Source: Escherichia phage CMSTMSU
DNA: 64,000 bases
Direction: 5' to 3' (one strand)
Sequence record: MH494197.1
Below, piece after piece: positions 7,627 to 36,644 of the stretch. Position 1 is the stretch's first letter; each line of letters opens with the position of its first letter. The notes under the pieces are model-generated. The model saw nothing but the letters and a program-made list of their open reading frames with translations, made no database searches and was not told where the DNA came from. A program made the translations under genes and the position numbers.

Positions 7627-7839
7627 TTATTGTATAAGATATAATCCATCCGTAATGAATAGGATGATTTTTGTCTGAATCAGGAATAAAATATAAAGAT
7701 GTACTGGGTTATAACTGAATAAATCGTTGTTACCAATTGTAAAATGTGATAACTCAATCTTCCTTGTACCTGTACTTGGACGAAGAACATTCTTAACACC
7801 GAAGACTGTACCTTGATATTTCTCGGAAAATTCAAACAA
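7627..7839 (-). CDS. hypothetical protein
   Basis: Track ORF. Confidence 0.35.
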   Translation of the reverse strand: MFEFSEKYQGTVFGVKNVLRPSTGTRKIELSHFTIGNNDLFSYNPVHLYILFLIQTKIILFITDGLYLIQ

Positions 7840-15967: not shown

Positions 15968-16161
15968 AGTCTACCTTTTATGTCCCTTCGTAATTCTTGT
16001 AAGTATAGTTCGATATACTTTTCTTGATAGTTAGTTCCTATGAAAAGTTTCATAACCAATTCACGCTTATATGCAATACCACGGATATGTGACATATGTA
16101 GGATATATGCCATGTTGGATATGAGTGTGTGGTTGTGCTCTTCTTCAGTTAAAATACGCAT
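15964..16161 (-). CDS. hypothetical protein, LGT-motif family
   Basis: FIGTNYQEKYIELYL. Confidence 0.5.
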   Translation of the reverse strand: MRILTEEEHNHTLISNMAYILHMSHIRGIAYKRELVMKLFIGTNYQEKYIELYLQELRRDIKGRL

Positions 16162-17498: not shown

Positions 17499-18022
17499 TT
17501 TGAATCTCCTAACTTTGTGGGCCGTCGCACCATTGCCGCCCTACGAGATACATTATTGCAGTACTGATATACTTTGTCAATACTTTTTATTAATAGTTTT
17601 AGTTCCACCAGCAGATAGTTACTCACCGTTATTAACTATATATTTTGGATACACCTATGCACCCTGTGGGCTAGTTTTTGTCTATGCGTATATATAGCAG
17701 GACTGACCGAGTCAATCCCTTTTTATTCTTTTTGTTAGATGATTCTCCAATCATCAACGATCATGGTAAGATACCGAACCAGTGATTCGAGTGATTCGTG
17801 TTCTCGATAGTCTGCCGCTCCACCAGCGGTACAAGTACAGCCGATTAAGCCGTTTTGTAGTTCCGGATCTTTACGTCGATCTGGTTGGCTTTAGCTTCTT
17901 TCAGTACTTCAACCGGGCGAGAGCGATAGACATAATGTTTTACTCCAAACTATTGGCGGGAGAACTATTCCCCGCTCTATGTAAAACATTATACATTACT
18001 GGTTAGTACTGTCAAATAGTTT

Positions 18023-19233: not shown

Positions 19234-19440
19234 TCACAAAACGAGTAGTTTTCTCGATAGCGAATCCCATATAATCCAGCTTACTAACAGTACATTCATT
19301 CTTAAAACTTCTTTCGCTGCATCGATGGCTGATTGCATGGATAACCGACCATCTAAATTAATGTTTCCAAATGATCCACCAGCAGAAGTAGGATTACCGT
19401 TCATATCTTTAATGATCATAGTAGCGGAGTAGCTGGACAT
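19234..19440 (-). CDS. hypothetical protein (C-terminus probably frame-disrupted)
   Basis: Starts right after cassette at about 19455-19530. Confidence 0.4.
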   Translation of the reverse strand: MSSYSATMIIKDMNGNPTSAGGSFGNINLDGRLSMQSAIDAAKEVLRMNVLLVSWIIWDSLSRKLLVL

Positions 19441-19858: not shown

Positions 19859-20339
19859 TGTAAGCTACAACCATTGCAGCATGATTTTTATCGTTAGTGA
19901 TGTTCCGAGCGAGATTAGTAGTAGTAGACATGATTTTATTCCTTTTAGTATCGGGGAGAACTATTCTCCCTTGATGTAAACTATTATACAGTACTAATAT
20001 ACTTTGTCAATACTTAATTACGTTTAAAATGATATGTGCCTTTATCATCCTGTACGCCCCATACTGATTTACCATCAACACCAGTGAAGCCGGATTGTAA
20101 TTCAATATGGAAACCATTATTATCAACTACAAAAACTTTTTATTTTCATCCCGATAACATTGATATTCTGAATCAACATTAAAGGCCGCATCATTCAGAA
20201 GATTAGAAGCGTAAATGCAAGTCATTGTAGTCATGATTTTATTCCTTATTGCCGTGGAACCGTTCCTCTCGATATAAAACATTATACTTGATTCTAAGTA
20301 TAATGCAAGTACTTTTTAAAATAGTTTTCAGTACTGAAT

Positions 20340-20440
20340 ACTTATATAATAGATACACTTCCGCACCCTATGGGTCAGTGAGTTATCTCTCAATGGATAT
20401 ATATAGCAAAGGACTGACCGAGTCAATCCCTTTTTAATCT
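20340..20440. repeat. ~90-bp repeated intergenic element (core GCACCCTATGGG…ending in hairpin + T-run)
   Basis: Near-identical copies at about 17642-17730, 23585-23665, 28068-28165; partial copies at 25866, 34322 and inverted at 32715. Confidence 0.55.
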
Positions 20441-23008: not shown

Positions 23009-23666
23009 TTTATTTCTCTCTCTTTGTTAGAGGGGAACCGTTTCCTCACTCGATGTAAACTATTATACAGTACTAAGATACTTTGTCAATACTTAATTAT
23101 TGTAAATGTCGTGAATAGTGATAAAGTTTTTACGACCGTAAACCTGCAAATCAATATCAATGTAGTGCTTATCTAGTACATCCTCGACGCTTAACGCGGT
23201 GTCGTGGATATCTTCGTAGAATTGAGTATCTACAATCTTGCTTAAGTCATCCGGCGTTAACTCATCGTTAAGCAGTTGAACCGCCGGATATCTGCTTCAC
23301 GTTTCCAGTCTTCCAGTTAGTAGTCAGTACTTGTTCGATTTCGTTAGCTGTCAGTAGAATCCGCATTTTTATGTTTCCTTATCAGTGGTTGATGTAAGTA
23401 TTATACTCGTTTACTTTCTATTGTCAAACTATTTTATCAGGGAGTTTTTCGTATGTCTTACTCGACTACTTAACGGGGTTACTTGTTTCGTTCCCCGTCC
23501 TGATGTAAAACATTATACTTGATTCTAAGTACAATGCAAGTACTTTTTAAAAATAGTTTTCAGTACTAGCCACCAGCAAACAATAGATACATTTATGCAC
23601 CCTGTGGGCTGATTTGTTTCTATGCGTATATAATAGCAAAGGACTGAATCCCTTATTCAATTATTT

Positions 23667-23816
23667 TTAAACTTCTTTCGGGTTGCGATAGGTGATAGCG
23701 TTCGGGTACATTTGTTTAATGTTATTCCATGCCCGGTTGACATTGTAACCACTTGATCGAATCAGTTGGTTACTACCGACACCTTGAAACACTACTTCGA
23801 ATAAGAATTCTTTCAT
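23667..23816 (-). CDS. hypothetical small protein (49 aa)
   Basis: Hand-translated; SD GAGGTGA 6 nt upstream of ATG. Confidence 0.45.
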   Translation of the reverse strand: MKEFLFEVVFQGVGSNQLIRSSGYNVNRAWNNIKQMYPNAITYRNPKEV

Positions 23817-25630: not shown

Positions 25631-25962
25631 TATTTTAACCTCATTATAAAAATACTATAGTACTGTAATGCTACAATAATACTACTAGTGCTAATCTTAT
25701 TCAAACCACATGATACTACATATCCACCAGCATTACCACGGATAGTAACGCCTTTGTACTGTCTATATAAATTCAACTGCGTATATTGCCTTTGATCAAG
25801 AATTGATCAGAATTATACGCCTTATGCTAAATTGATCCAGTACTTTTGATCATTTATTGATCGATGTTATATAGTTACATTTGTGCACCCTATGGGTTAG
25901 TGACGTTCTCGTCTTGATGTAAGTATTATGCCAGTACTGGAGGATATTGTCAATAGATTATT

Positions 25963-26402: not shown

Positions 26403-28067
26403 TTTGTTTCTCTCTTAGGTTAAGTTAACTACTGTTTATAAAACTTATTATACAGTACTATCAAACTATGTCAATAGTACTGGTAATATATTTTAGCGGT
26501 AGTCGTCGTATGCTTTATTCACGGCGAATATAACTTTCAAAGGCTTCGTCTACCGTTTCATACTCCCGAACATAATCACCATATGAAACTACATACATAC
26601 CTTTTGATCTTCAAACGTCATGATGATAGAATCCAGACCAACGATTTCAGTTTTTGCGATGATAGCCATTTTTAATTCCTTAGTAGTGTAGTTGATAAAA
26701 GTTATTATGTCAGTACTATCAAACTATGTCAATAGTACTGTGATAATATTTTAGTTAATGATAGTCAGTGTAAAATTGTAATCCCCTGCCCGTATAGTAC
26801 TTTATCGCCGAACGTTCCAACACGTTTCATATTGCAATAGATACCCATAACACTTTTACATCTTTGATATTCCGAACGCCAGTAATATCCTTGTTTAAAT
26901 GATCGTGATCAGAAAATAAAACTTGTTTTGCATTTTTCAGTACAGTGCAGATATTAGCCATTTTGTTTTCTCTTCTGTTAGTGGGGAGAAGTTTTTCTCC
27001 CTTGATGTAAACTATTATACAGTACTATAATCTATTGTCAAACTATTTTTTATATTATTCGAAATCTTCTGGACCGGACTGATAATCATCTTCACCGTAT
27101 GCACTTTCTAACCGCTCGCCAGTGCAATCATCAGTTAGTGAGTCATCCTCATAGTTCACGTCTACGCCAGTGATGTAAAACTGGCTATCGTCTGGATCAT
27201 TGAAATTAATTTTCTGGATGTTTACAATAACTGTATTGATGCCGTGACACCGCCATCAGCCGTTACAAAGTACTGATATTTTTCACAACCGCCTGAATTG
27301 AAACCGTAATTAATTTCGGCCCGACCATCACTTAAACGCAGTGTCTGAGCGATGATTTCATTTTCAAAGTTAGATTGAGCAATTGCAATAGTCATGATTT
27401 GTTTCTTATTATCAGGGAAACCGTTTCCCTTTCGATGTAAAACATTATACGCTTATCAGGAAGTAATGCAAGTACTATTTCACGTTAATTTCAAAGTACT
27501 GCTCTTTGATGTTTTCCTGTTGGTAAATCTCGTTTAATGCTTTAAGATCTAAAACCTGTTTACCTGCTGCCTGAATATACTTTTAAGAGTCGCTAACAGC
27601 TTCTCAGGCGTGTTTGTAGTCTTACGTGTTGGGATCTTATCGTGCCCCATAGCGTAGTACTGCTTACGTGCTATAGTACTGATAACACTGCGGTACGGTT
27701 CCATGATCAGCTTGTCTGTATTCGTCGCTATCCCCAAACTTCATACCGTGGATCGCAAAGGTCATCATCATGCGGTCGTTATCGCGGATATTGTGGGGCA
27801 GTCGGCAAGCTCGCGAGTCAGTGACATAGTGATCCCCACGTCGCCACCCAGCGGTAAAGGTCGGGCGATAAAGAAACCGTTAGGGAATACTTTCAGGAAG
27901 TTTTCTTGAACTGCTGCGACGAATTCGATGCTATTCATAATTCATTTCCTTAATTAGTGGGGAAGTTGTTTCCTCTTGATGTAAAACATTATACGCCTAT
28001 TGAGATAGTTTGCAAGTACTTTCTACAAATACTTTTAAAATAGTTTTCAGTACTCAATACTCATATA

Positions 28068-28165
28068 ATAGATACACTTATGCACCCTGTGGGCTAGTGA
28101 GCTATCTCTCAATGAATATATAATAGCAAAATGGCTGACCGAGTCAACCACTTTTTCATTTATTT
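28068..28165. repeat. ~90-bp repeated intergenic element (copy)
   Basis: atagatacacttatgcaccctgtgggctagtgagctatctctcaatgaatatataatagcaaaatggctgaccgagtcaacc. Confidence 0.55.
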
Positions 28166-30338: not shown

Positions 30339-30551
30339 TCATCCGTAAAGGATACGCTCAACGCCCAAATCAGTTAAACTAATCGACGGCACTTGATAGG
30401 TTTCAATGTATGCTACACTTGCCCACTGACCGAACTCATTAACGGCCGTATTCATTGCATTTTGCAATTCCACACCTTCCTTGTTGGTAATGACTGCAAC
30501 TACTTGTTCGTTGCCAGTAGTACCAGATACGCGAGTAATGATAATAGCCAT
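30339..30551 (-). CDS. hypothetical protein (70 aa)
   Basis: Track ORF directly downstream of a promoter cassette. Confidence 0.5.
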   Translation of the reverse strand: MAIIITRVSGTTGNEQVVAVITNKEGVELQNAMNTAVNEFGQWASVAYIETYQVPSISLTDLGVERILYG

Positions 30552-32267: not shown

Positions 32268-32677
32268 TTGATTATCCTTAGTTACGGGAACCGCTCTTGC
32301 GATGTAAAATATTATACAGTACTAAAAACTATTATCAAGTACTTTATGATTTTTATAAAACATTTCAGCAGTGATATTTTACCCGTTGGCTGTACTTTAT
32401 CCAGAATTTTTGATGTCCGGCCGTCCAAATGAATATGATCCGTAAACCGTAAACCAGTAGTTACCCTCAGTGTTTACATGTACAGCATAATAGGGAACGC
32501 CCGCGATTCATCACTAGTAAAGTGTGCTACCGTTCCGTTACATTCGCAGACGTTGATTTGATTTGTTCAAGCATTTTATTATTCCTTAGTTACCGTGGGA
32601 ACTGCTCCTATGCAAAACATTATACGCGTTTAAAACTAATTGCAAGTATTTTAATAAAAGTATTTGAAAAATAGTTG

Positions 32678-32706
32678 TTGACAAGTGCATCCAGTACTGG
32701 CATAAT
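32678..32706 (+). promoter_or_regulatory. plus-strand consensus promoter (TTGACA-N17-CATAAT)
   Basis: TTGACA 32678-32683, CATAAT 32701-32706; faces a terminator about 100 nt downstream. Confidence 0.4.
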
Positions 32707-32712
32707 TACTAC

Positions 32713-32815
32713 ATCAAGACGAAACAGTCACTAACCCACCGGGTGCATAGATCCGTCTATTAAATGATTCAGTACTGAAAAGTAACGGGAGTTATTATCT
32801 CCCCGTTGTTATTTT
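32713..32815 (+). ncRNA. candidate small RNA (promoter to terminator, about 100 nt)
   Basis: No ORF; ends with hairpin AACGGGAG-ttattat-CTCCCCGTT + T-run; contains the repeated GCACCCxxTGGG element in inverted orientation. Confidence 0.25.
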
Positions 32816-33029
32816 GTGGTATAAACAGAAGTCGCCTTTATTTGCTACGCCGCCAGTGTAACGCGAGGAATAGTCACCCGACTTCTGCTATTACCAGTGT
32901 ATCATCATTCAATTCGCGCAAACGGCTGGATCTTGTACGCCGATTTTGTCGGCATGTTCCCGCATAGATTTAACCAGTGCTTCCAGTTGGGAAAGAGTAG
33001 TGATATTAGCCATTGTATTTTCTCATTAC

Positions 33030-33100
33030 CGTGGAGAACCATTTCTCCCTTTGATGTAAAACATTATACAGTACTGAAAACTAATTGCAAGTACTTTTTA
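33030..33100 (-). promoter_or_regulatory. promoter + stem-loop cassette (copy)
   Basis: Same conserved TATAATGTTTTACATCaa + GGGAGAA/TTCTCC module. Confidence 0.5.
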
Positions 33101-34750
33101 ATATTGTTTGTCGTCGTCTTCCTCGATGAATTGACCGACGAAATGATCTACTTTCGCTTTGAGGCTTTTATAATCTTCTTCTACTTCCTTTAAACGTTCC
33201 GTAGTATTCCAGTGCCTCAACATATGCGGCCTCAGCCGTTTTCTCACGCATAGCTAAATTCATTCCACGCGTTTCATCAAATAGCCAAAACCATCGGTGC
33301 ATTCACTGATAGACAATGATTTGTTTAACACATTGTACTTTATTACTTTACTCATTAGATAACCTCAGTAAAGGCGGGAACTATTACCCGCCTCGATGTA
33401 AAGTATTATACGCTTTTAAACTTAGTTTGCAAGTACTTTTAAATTAATATTCGATTGATTCTACTACGCCATCAATAACATTGAATTGATACTCGTTTCA
33501 ATCAGTGCCGTAATGTTTTCCAGTAGTGAATTGATCCTCATATGCATTCTCTAAATCACGGTACAACTTGCGGGACAATTCACGAATAGTGTCAGTGAGT
33601 AGTTCCTCAAGCTCATTAACTAACGTTTTTGTTTTGCGGTTAAATCCAGTGTAAGCCGATTCAATGTACCCGCTTACAGTATTCTTGAGTAGTGGGAGTG
33701 CGAACGCTTTACACTCATCGCCAAACCATCTTCATTCAGCAAGTGACGGATTGAGCGATTAGTTAATGCTTTACCTTGCGTAAAACTTCACTGCGTCAAC
33801 GTGGTCAGTACTGATTGATGCACCGTCCCCGGGACCAAAAGCCACTGAATCGTAAATCAGCGTCATTAATGCCATATTCCGGTAGTACTGTTTCAGTATT
33901 CATTTCACTTTCAGAAAAATAATCATCGTTTAAGTTTTTTCACGTTCCCGAACCAGTTCGATAGCTGACGTTTGTTGTTCTGCGTTCAATTCAGAAAAAT
34001 CCATAACGAAAGTAGTAGTAGTGATAGTTTTCATTTTGTAACCCTCATTCAGTAGTTGATGTAAGTATTATACGCTTTAAAAACGTCAAACTATTTTATC
34101 AGGGAGTTTTGTGCCTATTCCTCGGCTACTTAACGGAAGTTACTTATTTGTTCCCCGTCCTGATGTAAAACATTATACGCCTTTAAACATAGTTTGCAAG
34201 TACTTTTAAAAATAGTTTTCAGTACTGAATATTAAAAAGTATTGACAGCATTATCAGTACTAATATAATTCCCATGACAACAGCTAACCCACGGTGCAAT
34301 TGTAACTGTAATAAACTTTTTCTAGATACACTTCCGCACCCTATGGGCTACGGCTTATCTGCCAATGAATACATTATGCCAGTACTGACAAAATAAGTCA
34401 ATACCGGCAATTGTAAAGATTTGTAAACTGCTTATACTGCAATCGCGTCCGTGCTATAATAATAATAAGTGCTATGGTGTGACTTACCTTTTATTTCAGT
34501 ACTGAATGAATCCGAACGATTTGCATATGATGTTAATTTAAAGTACTTTGATTTGTTGATACGTTACACCACAGATCCGCGTAAGTAGTTTTATTAGTGG
34601 TAGTATCTTTACGGTTTTAACTTCAGTCATATACATATTAGTCATTTTTATTACTCCGAGTTATAGGGGAACTATTCCCGCTCTCGATGTAAAACATTAT
34701 ACGCTTTTAAACTTAGTTTGCAAGTACTTTTATTCAAGTACTGCAATCTT

Positions 34751-35576: not shown

Positions 35577-36130
35577 TGAATCAGCTATGAAGTAGCGTAT
35601 TGTTCACGCACGGCAACGGTTCCCGATAAGCTGTAAATGTGAATTTTACAGTTTCAGCCGGAAGACCTTTCATTTCACGGAAGTTAACCGTGTTAAGCAT
35701 GATTTTATTGATTTGAGTCGCCATCGTTTTAATCTCTTAATGTAGCGGGAAGTGTTCCTGCCTCGATGTAAAACATTATACGCTTTTATCAGTATGCAAG
35801 TACTTTCTACAAATACTTTTAAAATAGTTTTCTCTATATAGGGAACTATTATTCAGTACTGCAACCATCCGTGGGAACTATCTTTCTATAGTAGTACTAT
35901 TATTCAGTACTGAATCAATCCACCAAATCATCCTGATACCCGTAAAACGGCCTCAGACGCATTCTAACGCATTAATACACCTAAGCTATACATTTGCACC
36001 ATTCCAATCTTGGCTGGGCCGTTTAAACGCGTTAAATTATTTTCAATTATTTTGTTTTAGCTATTGACTCAGTACTAAAAAGCGTATAATTACACATAGA
36101 CGCGAGAAAGGAAACCAGAGGGTGCGGAAT

Positions 36131-36644
36131 TACGCCCAAAATTCAAGATATAAAAAAAGGATACACCGCACCCTAGCAGGTTAACGCACTTTCTAGTACT
36201 GAAATATAGTAACATAGTCCGCTGATAGCAAGCAATTAAAACTTTTTCATCCGGTATTGCTTTATTTTTCCAGTACTGTATAATAGTTCCATCGTCGAGA
36301 AAGACTCAGCCCACCGTATAGTTACGCCCAAAATTCAGTACTGAAAATTTTAAAAATATCCGTCCGTGCGCGTTGTTCCCCCAGTTTATAAGATAATGAT
36401 TCCAGACTCCAGAACGGTTCATCCCACGCGGTAGGGGAACTATTGGAAAACAAAATAAAATTTTGATTTAGCCGTCTATACTTCCAGACGTGTAACCATC
36501 TAGCCGTTTAGCTGTCCAAACGTCAGCCATCCAGCCATCCAGAAATCTAGCCGTTTAGCCGTCCAGATGGATAGCCATTTCCAGACTTCTGAGGGCTAGA
36601 CATATCTACGTCCAAAATCCATCCGTGGTAACTACGCCCAAAAT
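36131..36644. repeat. dispersed 12-bp motif TACGCCCAAAAT (3 exact copies + 1 variant)
   Basis: Exact at 36131, 36323, 36633; variant TACGTCCAAAAT at 36607. Confidence 0.5.
36500..36566. repeat. direct repeats CTAGCCGTTTAGC(T/C)GTCCA x2
   Basis: Copies at about 36500 and 36548, with AGCCATCCAGCCATCCAG between them. Confidence 0.5.

Follow-up and report, generated by a model that had tools for sequence, protein, structure and literature searches.

Within a block of minus-strand genes of Escherichia phage CMSTMSU (MH494197.1), positions 32678 to 32817 carry, on the plus strand, a near-consensus promoter, a leader of about 60 nt and a GC-rich hairpin. We analysed this unit within the surrounding stretch of 64,000 nt (hereafter the window). 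It is a conserved antisense promoter-leader-terminator unit, and we lean, if only slightly, towards reading it as a self-contained early transcription unit for a non-coding RNA of about 100 nt that might act as a decoy. Several described systems resemble it in part. Combined terminator/promoter cassettes, the promoter-early stem-loops (PeSLs), have reportedly been found in T4-type phages (Arbiol et al. 2010, PMC2839356). In phage lambda, OOP RNA is a 77-nt antisense transcript that runs from its own promoter to an intrinsic terminator and overlaps the 3' end of cII; PR'-qut-tR' of the same phage yields the short 6S RNA, and its nut leaders carry boxA and boxB. Intrinsic terminators that serve two convergent transcripts are a general feature of bacteria.

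For T4-type phages, the PeSL is a composite of stem-loop terminator and early promoter (Comeau et al. 2014, PMC4122927). The terminal repeat of the Pseudomonas jumbo phage PA5oct, which shares core genes with the Rak2-like group, holds the RNA-seq-supported ncRNA001 and ncRNA002 (236 and 451 nt), which lie in gaps free of open reading frames (ORFs), were annotated without known promoters and are highly expressed throughout infection (PMC7318152). For the early region of phage CBB, the accessible text of the genome paper reports 18 promoters of RpoD-like type that have UP-like elements, and it makes no mention of the leader described here.

The PeSL is the closest published concept to the unit. 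In either case a stem-loop terminator and an early promoter close to the TTGACA-N17-TATAAT consensus are joined in a short intergenic cassette, which is present in repeated copies among the small ORFs of a hyperplastic early region, and the genes on its flanks differ among close relatives; the unit is such a composite of stem-loop and sigma70-like promoter in intergenic DNA, and its upstream flank and the G17_00044 region vary among Asteriusvirus phages (0.54 identity; the flank is replaced in EJP2). Unlike in a PeSL, the promoter opposes the genes, and the stem-loop lies downstream, 3' of the transcript, so that the pair brackets an RNA instead of parting two genes; the same-strand, terminator-then-promoter layout assumed in this comparison is taken from the wording 'composite terminator/promoter', the text of PMC4122927 giving neither order nor strand. 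The module also contains a conserved leader of about 60 nt (the 5' hairpin hp1, a core box and AGUACUG), of which PMC4122927 makes no mention, and it is found in Rak2-like jumbo phages, whereas PeSLs belong to Tquatrovirinae. The neighbouring minus-strand cassette promoter at 32619–32645 does fit the PeSL layout, and the window's intergenic cassettes fit the PeSL description.

With OOP the unit shares its layout: a short non-coding transcript with a dedicated sigma70 promoter and an intrinsic terminator, opposing a neighbouring gene and overlapping its 3' end, the predicted RNA (32713 to about 32815) covering the terminator and last codons of the G17_00045 homolog. The two RNAs are unrelated in sequence, the overlap is limited to the terminator hairpin and the last few codons (about 25–30 nt), and the body of the RNA is a repeated leader that is antisense to nothing nearby. 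As in other bidirectional terminators, one GC-rich hairpin between an A-tract and a U-tract would end both a minus-strand gene and a plus-strand RNA; unlike the usual case, one partner is a dedicated non-coding unit of about 100 nt, with the hairpin at a fixed distance in many phages. Homology to the PA5oct RNAs was considered and rejected: a model of the leader finds nothing in the first 45 kb of that genome (all E > 1), and we therefore regard those RNAs as analogous, not homologous, to the unit.

The plus-strand promoter, leader and hairpin

The elements of the unit are as follows.

32678–32683, plus strand: -35 hexamer TTGACA, from sequence reading and a consensus scan; TTGAC is invariant in 12 orthologs (Asteriusvirus, Alcyoneusvirus)
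32698–32706, plus strand: extended -10 TGgCATAAT, with TG at 32698–32699 and CATAAT at 32701–32706; ATAAT is invariant in the orthologs
32713, plus strand: predicted transcription start, the A of a conserved ACAT motif, 7 nt past the -10, placed by spacing
32718–32729, plus strand: 5' hairpin hp1, GAC-GAAACA-GUC, with a short stem and a purine/A-rich loop; compensatory arm changes among copies and orthologs
32734–32746, plus strand: conserved core box ACCCACCGGGTGC, family consensus RCCCAYNGGGUGC, from pattern search and alignment
32750–32760, plus strand: GAUCCGUCUAU box, with the family variant GUGUAUCUAU, from alignments
32770–32777, plus strand: CAGUACUG palindrome, 24 nt past the core here and about 24–27 nt in the family, from the alignment of 20 antisense units
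32784–32807, both strands: GC-rich hairpin AACGGGAG-ttattat-CTCCCCGTT (RNA arms AACGGGAG-uuauuau-CUCCCCGUU), scored by the scan on either strand
32806–32817, plus strand: U-rich tail UUGUUAUUUUGU, in which the plus-strand RNA is expected to end; it overlaps the last codons of the convergent gene (sequence and scan)
32713–32815, plus strand: predicted non-coding transcript (about 100 nt), deduced from where promoter and terminator lie; 19 antisense units elsewhere agree in length and architecture

A preliminary description of this DNA had read TTGACA-N17-CATAAT at 32678–32706, and sequence reading and the consensus scan bear this out, with an 11/12 match to consensus and the TGn extension. The unit thus has the arrangement of a sigma70-type promoter, in which the -35 and -10 hexamers lie 16–18 bp apart, here with an extended -10. 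In orthologs from Klebsiella phages the -10 is TATAAT. It is embedded in a palindrome, CCAGTACTGG, that is present in many promoter spacers of the same phage. Sites that match at 11 or more of 12 positions with an N17 spacer number 12 in the window, against 2.0 ± 1.45 expected from shuffles (a 6-fold enrichment), and the promoter of the unit is the only one of the 12 on the plus strand. At the predicted start position, alignments show that a CAT motif is kept in all copies of the module described below.

The hairpin and the U-rich tail are likewise present where the preliminary description had put them. The distance needs correction: the hairpin, said to follow the promoter after about 100 nt, starts 78 nt after the -10, and it is the whole RNA that would measure about 100 nt. 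On the plus strand an A-rich run precedes the stem and a U-rich run follows it, the mirror image is seen on the minus strand, and the two tails, CGUUGUUAUUUU on the plus and UUACUUUUCAGU on the minus strand, are comparably U-rich (plus-strand tail GTTATTTTGT at 32808–32817). This is the sequence of an intrinsic (Rho-independent) bidirectional terminator. In relatives the stop codon of G17_00045 lies about 5 nt beyond the last stem base. Because the hairpin is scored both ways and is annotated on the minus strand in relatives, we read it as a bidirectional terminator common to the minus-strand gene and the putative plus-strand RNA. Its stem sequence is swapped among three or four variants in orthologs, with the hairpin retained each time; the bulge in the window's copy arises because one G is absent relative to relatives.

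Between A32713 and the U-tract, direct reading finds a single ORF, the 4-codon AUG-AUU-CAG-UAC-UGA. The interval 32678–32900 had been described as free of ORFs, which holds for the transcribed part; positions 32806–32900 are not non-coding, because they are the 3' part of the frameshifted G17_00045 homolog, a minus-strand coding sequence (CDS). The rejection of the plus-strand ORF at 32897–33193 was right, since it is antisense to the same homolog. The chance that the interval encodes a very small protein seems to us close to negligible. Some records do annotate one, namely a plus-strand 34-aa CDS in SD-2_S15, gp270 of 121Q over a convergent pair, and 7t3_0179. These annotated ORFs vary in frame, strand and position from record to record, the conserved blocks are hairpins and palindromes with no codon pattern, and the 4-codon ORF is all that the unit offers in the window; we rejected this reading.

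Short GenBank CDSs lie directly over units or convergent pairs at 121Q gp270 (locus L027, 1084–1269), SD-2_S15 (L016, 524–625), 7t3_0179 (L005, 12202–12312) and Hallingskeid CDS0054 (L007, 17375–17497), and these 'hypothetical protein' entries are probably spurious calls. The 9-bp inverted repeat that had been noted just beyond the hairpin, with a spacer of 46 nt, exists at 32826–32834 and 32879–32887 (CAGAAGTCG/CGACTTCTG), with a spacer of 44 nt. We rejected it as a component of the unit: it lies within the CDS, it is just 7–8 bp long with a longer spacer in relatives, and about 28 comparable repeats are expected per window by chance.

A repeated module with a strict orientation rule

Comparison of the window with itself by blast, together with pattern searches, reveals repeats of the promoter and of the ~60 nt transcribed first. 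Nine copies of this module are detected by a covariance model based on sequence only; eight of them were in its seed, and the copy of the unit (at 32707, plus strand), itself in the seed, scores 37.4 bits with E 1e-10. The other copies are as follows.

17637–17696, 20342–20404, 23577–23634, 25867–25922, 28061–28123 and 34316–34376, minus strand: six sense copies (covariance model, E 1e-13 to 4e-10)
34261–34313, plus strand: second plus copy, with a 12/12 promoter at 34242–34269, convergent with the minus copy at 34316–34376
36088–36146, plus strand: third plus copy, with the variant core ACCAGAGGGTG, in a convergent pair (covariance model, E 1e-6)

Indels account for the E of 0.054 that the second plus copy scores in the window; it is intact in G17. 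Each copy comprises a near-consensus promoter, a CAT start, hp1 or a bare A-rich stretch, the box RCCCAYNGGGTGC, a GTATCTAT-like box and then (C)AGTACTG about 24–27 nt past the core. The family, as defined in the present analysis, requires a near-consensus promoter, RCCCAYNGGGUGC within 16–22 nt of the start, a GUAUCUAU-like box and AGUACUG, and the unit has all of these. CCC and GGGTG of the core are invariant in an alignment of 44 copies, and the 19-nt pattern TCACTRRCCCAYMGGGTGC spanning the core gives six matches in the window at up to 3 mismatches, against 0.08 expected; the core of the unit has no mismatch to the core pattern. This core could fold into a 4-bp hairpin with a 3-nt loop. 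Most sense copies (for example 20342, 23577 and 28061) lead not to a terminator but to a gene with its ribosome-binding site, preceded by a second promoter, AGTACTTGCA-N16-TATAAT, and the module in these copies reads as the 5' leader of early operons.

The window has 257 instances of AGTACT, a palindromic ScaI site, where 20.8 ± 4.5 would be expected, and they are densest at 16000–43000. The hexamer takes fixed places at promoters, just upstream of the -35 (AGTACTTGCA / AGTACTTGAC) and just upstream of the -10 (CAGTACTGnnATAAT), and is also found about 24–27 nt downstream of the leader core. It may be a candidate binding site for an unknown regulator.

The module is also present in Rak2-like phages of Klebsiella, Salmonella, Erwinia, Cronobacter and Pectobacterium (K64-1/RaK2, Muenster, 7t3, fENko-Kae01, Hallingskeid, GAP32, CBB). 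Sensitive blastn with the non-coding stretch gave 72% identity in the Klebsiella phages K64-1 and RaK2, in unannotated DNA, about 80% in Muenster, and, for the core, about 84% in 7t3/Munch (Salmonella) and fENko-Kae01 (Klebsiella); Erwinia phage Hallingskeid was also matched. An exact-pattern scan of IMG/VR returned only six contigs, of about 346–378 kb.

In these loci we catalogued 79 unique promoter-plus-core copies and assigned them as sense or antisense by local ORF strand bias. There are 51 sense and 28 antisense copies, with eight of each in convergent pairs. Under a strict perfect-stem rule, a GC-rich hairpin lies 36–42 nt past the core in 16/20 solo antisense copies and in 0/43 solo sense copies (Fisher's test, p = 1e-11). 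The four remaining solo antisense entries are three with the same hairpin at one mismatch and one false hit, and the count curated by eye is 19/19 genuine solo antisense copies against 0/43 solo sense copies (p = 2e-16). As this catalogue shows, every antisense copy has a boundary, which is either a terminator at a set distance or another copy that faces it. The GC-rich stem of the unit (GGGAG) begins 41 nt past the core, which places it in the solo antisense subtype. When 20 antisense units from at least six phage lineages are aligned, AGTACTG and its spacing are invariant and an A-tract is present; the hairpins differ in sequence and the tails are U-rich.

Conservation was measured as mean pairwise identity among seven Asteriusvirus orthologs. 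It is 0.95 for the promoter and 0.91 for the transcribed leader, 0.64 for the terminator and 0.69 for adjacent intergenic DNA, and 0.91 and 0.54 for the CDSs of G17_00045 and G17_00044; the promoter and the transcribed part are conserved to the same degree as the neighbouring CDS. The arrangement is also orthologous over a much larger distance. G17_00045 (phrog_33522) and Hallingskeid CDS0055 are orthologs with 36–38% identity (E 1e-13), and an antisense unit stands at the 3' end of both; in a second such pair, RaK2_00345 matches Hallingskeid CDS0032 at 38% identity, with units on both. Neutral intergenic DNA would be randomised at about 37% amino-acid identity between the proteins, and we conclude from this that the unit is under selection.

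These results bear on the possibility that the unit is an inert relic, a PeSL-type cassette inverted or inserted by recombination between repeated cassettes. The region is indeed composed of repeated promoter/terminator cassettes prone to recombination, the copy departs from the sense ones past CAGTACTGAAAA much as a truncated copy would, flanking genes vary in close relatives (0.54 identity in the G17_00044 region, replaced upstream DNA in EJP2), and PeSLs have been described as modular shuffling points (PMC4122927). A relic should decay, yet the promoter hexamers are unchanged over two genera, antisense units stand at orthologous gene ends although the phage proteins are only about 37% identical, and 19/19 solo antisense copies keep a near-consensus promoter and a hairpin at the same distance. 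With evidence for purifying selection partly in hand, we find this explanation very doubtful.

Some further features of the module were observed along the way. Tandem promoters at 20300–20440, 23535–23670 and 28020–28155 consist of a strong TTGACx promoter with leader and, about 90 nt on, a weaker cassette promoter for the same gene, which suggests two temporal or regulatory classes of transcript per gene. In many sense promoters of the family the -35 TTGACT lies in the 5' arm of a terminator-like hairpin whose T-run enters the -10 (for example GGGGTTGACTTCGGTCAGCCCCTTTTGCTATTAT); such fused elements lie at about 28125–28155, 20405–20440 and 17700–17735 on the minus strand, with many copies in loci L004–L007, and by their layout they would both end the upstream unit and restart transcription. 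Convergent pairs form another arrangement. The transcripts of the pair at 34242–34408 (in G17, locus L001, 5020–5200) would be complementary over about 100 nt, a second pair lies at about 36060–36200, and others are found in K64-1, 7t3, fENko-Kae01, Hallingskeid and CBB. In other genera the centre of the pair is a palindrome, (G)AATGATAATCATT, that agrees with the Fur-box consensus of E. coli in about 15/19 positions (L004 at about 30400–30460, L005 at about 1380–1410 and 7650–7680, L007 at about 19380–19400); this palindrome is absent from the window.

Structure and possible roles of the predicted RNA

The structural evidence at the RNA level concerns hp1. A hairpin of at least 3 bp lies just upstream of the core in 36/44 unselected leaders, against 24 ± 3 (maximum 32) in 500 shuffles, and one of at least 4 bp in 22/44, against 9.6 ± 2.5 (maximum 18). 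The 44 leaders show no fewer than 12 distinct pairs of complementary arms; those seen in copies and orthologs include GAC/GUC, AGC/GCU, GCC/GGC, GAG/CUC, GCCG/CGGC and GUCA/UGAC, and between orthologs the arms shift from GAC/GTC to AGC/GCT to GCC/GGC. In a subset of 12 sequences of the same geometry all four pairs show double-sided changes, no shuffle reaches the covariation score, and 94.8% of hp1 cells are paired, against 15–49% when the partner is slid. As this subset was picked by geometry, we regard the covariation as supportive, not decisive. An outer helix between the 5' end and the GUAUCUAU box can be drawn in some copies (AGACG/CGUCU here) and was rejected, being inconsistent across the family when compared by eye.

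The preliminary description had looked to RNA structure prediction and to antisense complementarity with neighbouring mRNAs. The former shows a covarying hp1 in an RNA whose overall fold is unexceptional; in the latter no target stands out beyond the common terminator. Rfam gave no match at the gathering threshold in the window and, at a permissive E-value, only weak, inconsistent and terminator-driven matches (E of at least 0.05) for the unit and four ortholog loci. A scan of the window with ARAGORN was negative for tRNA and tmRNA. Mimicry of a host sequence was rejected, since the G17 version had no blastn match in 5,426 genomes of E. coli.

Taking into consideration the promoter, the leader, the hairpin and their conservation, we infer the following course of events. 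Host sigma70 RNA polymerase would initiate at about A32713 from the near-consensus extended -10 promoter and transcribe the leader of about 60 nt, with its A-rich-loop 5' hairpin, the box ACCCACCGGGUGC, GAUCCGUCUAU and CAGUACUG. It would stop at the bidirectional intrinsic terminator at 32784–32817 (3' end at 32806–32817), tail-to-tail with the convergent minus-strand gene. Such transcription of the terminal repeat, presumably at a very early stage of infection, would yield an abundant non-coding RNA about 100 nt long. Since the same promoter and leader head early minus-strand operons, the unit can be seen as a free-standing, terminated copy of a cis-leader. The free RNA would then show the same recognition elements as the operon leaders and could compete in trans, as a decoy, for whatever binds them, be it a protein or a complementary 'anti-leader' RNA from the convergent promoter pairs. 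The balance of the evidence tips modestly towards the existence of the transcript unit. The decoy role is a guess that we rate much lower, and prefer among functions because early operon transcripts carry the leader of which this RNA would be a free copy.

Several points weigh against this interpretation. The first base of the -10 is C. GenBank annotation in G17 and Muenster places the hairpin on the minus strand as a terminator, and some orthologs, PBECO4 among them, have a weak plus-strand U-tract broken by other bases. The unbiased hp1 test is moderately significant, its copies are not independent, and the covariation subset was chosen by geometry. RNAalifold on the 20 antisense units recovers just the invariant 4-bp core hairpin, with no double-sided changes, from an alignment in which MAFFT misaligns hp1 and the terminators; the core being essentially invariant, the alignment offers no evidence for or against core pairing. 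The fold of the whole 102-nt RNA is not unusually stable (minimum free energy z = -0.85). No trans target was found among the neighbouring mRNAs, and pairing in trans between the unit and the neighbouring convergent pair was rejected: a 17-nt match exists in G17, and the loop variant in 121Q does not co-vary. The sequence of the window itself has indels relative to its relatives, one of them inside the hairpin, and a literature search found no published transcriptome for Asteriusvirus or RaK2-like enterobacterial phages.

Some of these points would be expected if the RNA were a by-product and the unit acted at the level of DNA or transcription. The hairpin would then simply be the terminator of the convergent gene, merely keeping antisense transcription short, and the antisense promoter would serve as an insulator (by RNA polymerase roadblock or head-on interference with read-through) or would boost the back-to-back cassette promoter by divergent supercoiling. 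The minus-strand terminator annotation in G17 and Muenster agrees with this, as do the back-to-back placement of the antisense promoter 32 bp from the promoter of the next gene, the fact that each solo antisense copy abuts a sense-gene terminator, the unexceptional fold and the lack of a trans target in our search. A roadblock or supercoiling effect needs a promoter only, yet the leader of about 60 nt is nearly as conserved as the promoter (0.91 and 0.95), hp1 is kept by compensatory change between orthologs, and AGUACUG is invariant. We consider this explanation unlikely, without finding it far-fetched.

The same leader also follows the strongest promoters, which head multi-gene arrays with several annotated intrinsic terminators, and this is what might be seen if it were a site for antitermination or for loading a regulator, placed ahead of a terminator as in lambda PR'-qut-tR' or in a nut-like leader. 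The unit would then give the RNA of about 100 nt early and, once a leader-recognising factor appears, a long antisense RNA that shuts early minus-strand genes; in the sense copies the leader would let polymerase pass the many terminators between small genes. The lambda 6S RNA unit is likewise free of ORFs and consists of a strong promoter, a short conserved element close to it and then a terminator, and hp1 near the 5' end, with its short stem and purine-rich loop (GAAACA, AGAACAA, GAGAAA), recalls the boxB of lambda and P22. The geometry differs: boxB has a 5-bp stem and a GNRA-like purine pentaloop, whereas hp1 has covarying arms of just 3–5 bp and a purine/A-rich loop of 6–8 nt. Direct reading of the unit's leader finds no boxA-like element (CGCUCUUA / UGCUCUUUAACAA), we have no candidate for an antiterminator protein and no known Q- or N-like factor, and downstream of the unit there is only the antisense strand of early genes. 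Many sense promoters moreover carry an upstream terminator in their own -35 region, which points to insulated units over read-through. We judge antitermination to be very improbable.

Returning to the free terminated RNA, it can be placed in a broader scheme, clearly improbable in our estimation, in which RNA forms a control layer over the immediate-early operons of Rak2-like phages and one element serves as cis leader, as anti-leader RNA and as free terminated copies. The anti-leader RNA of a convergent pair would hold a 15-nt GC-rich complement of the core, and the free copies (32713–32815) would buffer or titrate either the interaction of leader and anti-leader or a leader-binding protein. 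If this were true, leader, anti-leader and free copies would together set the timing or stability of early expression.

The preliminary description of a small-RNA promoter-to-terminator unit inside the minus-strand block is strengthened by the conservation, the presence in at least six lineages and the orientation rule. It had portrayed a single unit, and here its account of unit, hairpin and repeat has to be changed: the module is repeated and mostly sense-oriented, the hairpin is bidirectional, the inverted repeat is chance-level coding sequence, and no antisense target stands out. The module is apparently an undescribed repeated element of Rak2-like jumbo phages. In the Rak2/121Q group tens of kb of terminal repeat hold small early genes of unknown function whose transcriptional organisation is essentially unstudied, and the analysis provides a recognisable promoter-and-leader element that marks the heads of early operons, a predicted subtype of non-coding RNA of about 100 nt and a strict orientation rule, together with concrete candidates both for small RNAs of phages and for a factor that recognises the leader. 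Because several GenBank records have what appear to be spurious small ORFs over the units, the module also improves annotation. If the RNA is made and acts in trans, it would represent a new conserved family of regulatory RNAs of virulent phages.

Genomic context and neighbouring genes

Megablast of 32400–33100 matched 37 phage records, 33 of which cover the query at 90–94% identity, and all are jumbo phages of about 350 kb of the genus Asteriusvirus that infect Escherichia or Salmonella (among them BF17, SP27, G17, phAPEC6, PBECO4 and 121Q). By this similarity the window belongs to an Asteriusvirus-like (Rak2-like) E. coli jumbo phage and covers its early small-gene region. In annotated relatives the region is a series of small 'hypothetical protein' genes, all on the same strand; in vB_Ec-M-J its equivalent lies inside a 21.5-kb direct terminal repeat, and relatives have the region annotated as terminal repeat. 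Compared with about 35 close relatives the window has many deletions of 1–8 nt, chiefly shortened homopolymers and generally at 16000–43000. Through them the small minus-strand genes are frameshifted, the terminator stem lacks one G and a promoter spacer is down to 15 nt; they look like assembly or sequencing error, or decay. The fragmented ORF list and the lack of long ORFs in the block result from these deletions, which break the small genes.

The features that flank the unit are as follows.

32819–33022, minus strand: convergent gene, homolog of G17_00045 (phrog_33522, function unknown), from tblastn (71% identity, E 3e-29, with in-frame stops) and a PHROG match
32349–32574, minus strand: next gene, homolog of G17_00044, from tblastn, split over three frames in the window
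32619–32645, minus strand: divergent 'cassette' promoter TTGCAA-N15-TATAAT (N16 in relatives), from sequence and alignment
32646–32677, no strand: AT-rich 32-bp spacer between the back-to-back promoters (on the plus strand that of the unit, on the minus strand the cassette promoter of the next gene), from sequence and alignment

The G17_00045 homolog is interrupted by indels in the window, and the inverted repeat mentioned above sits within it. The neighbours of the unit fall in phrog_33522 and phrog_9227. A reading of the locus as a type I toxin-antitoxin system was rejected, the convergent and divergent neighbours being soluble-looking proteins of 83 and 78 aa and unknown function and not hydrophobic toxins. 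From its position, the cassette promoter at 32619–32645 would drive the G17_00044 homolog at 32349–32574, and the AT-rich spacer at 32646–32677 could act as an UP-like region for both promoters that flank it.

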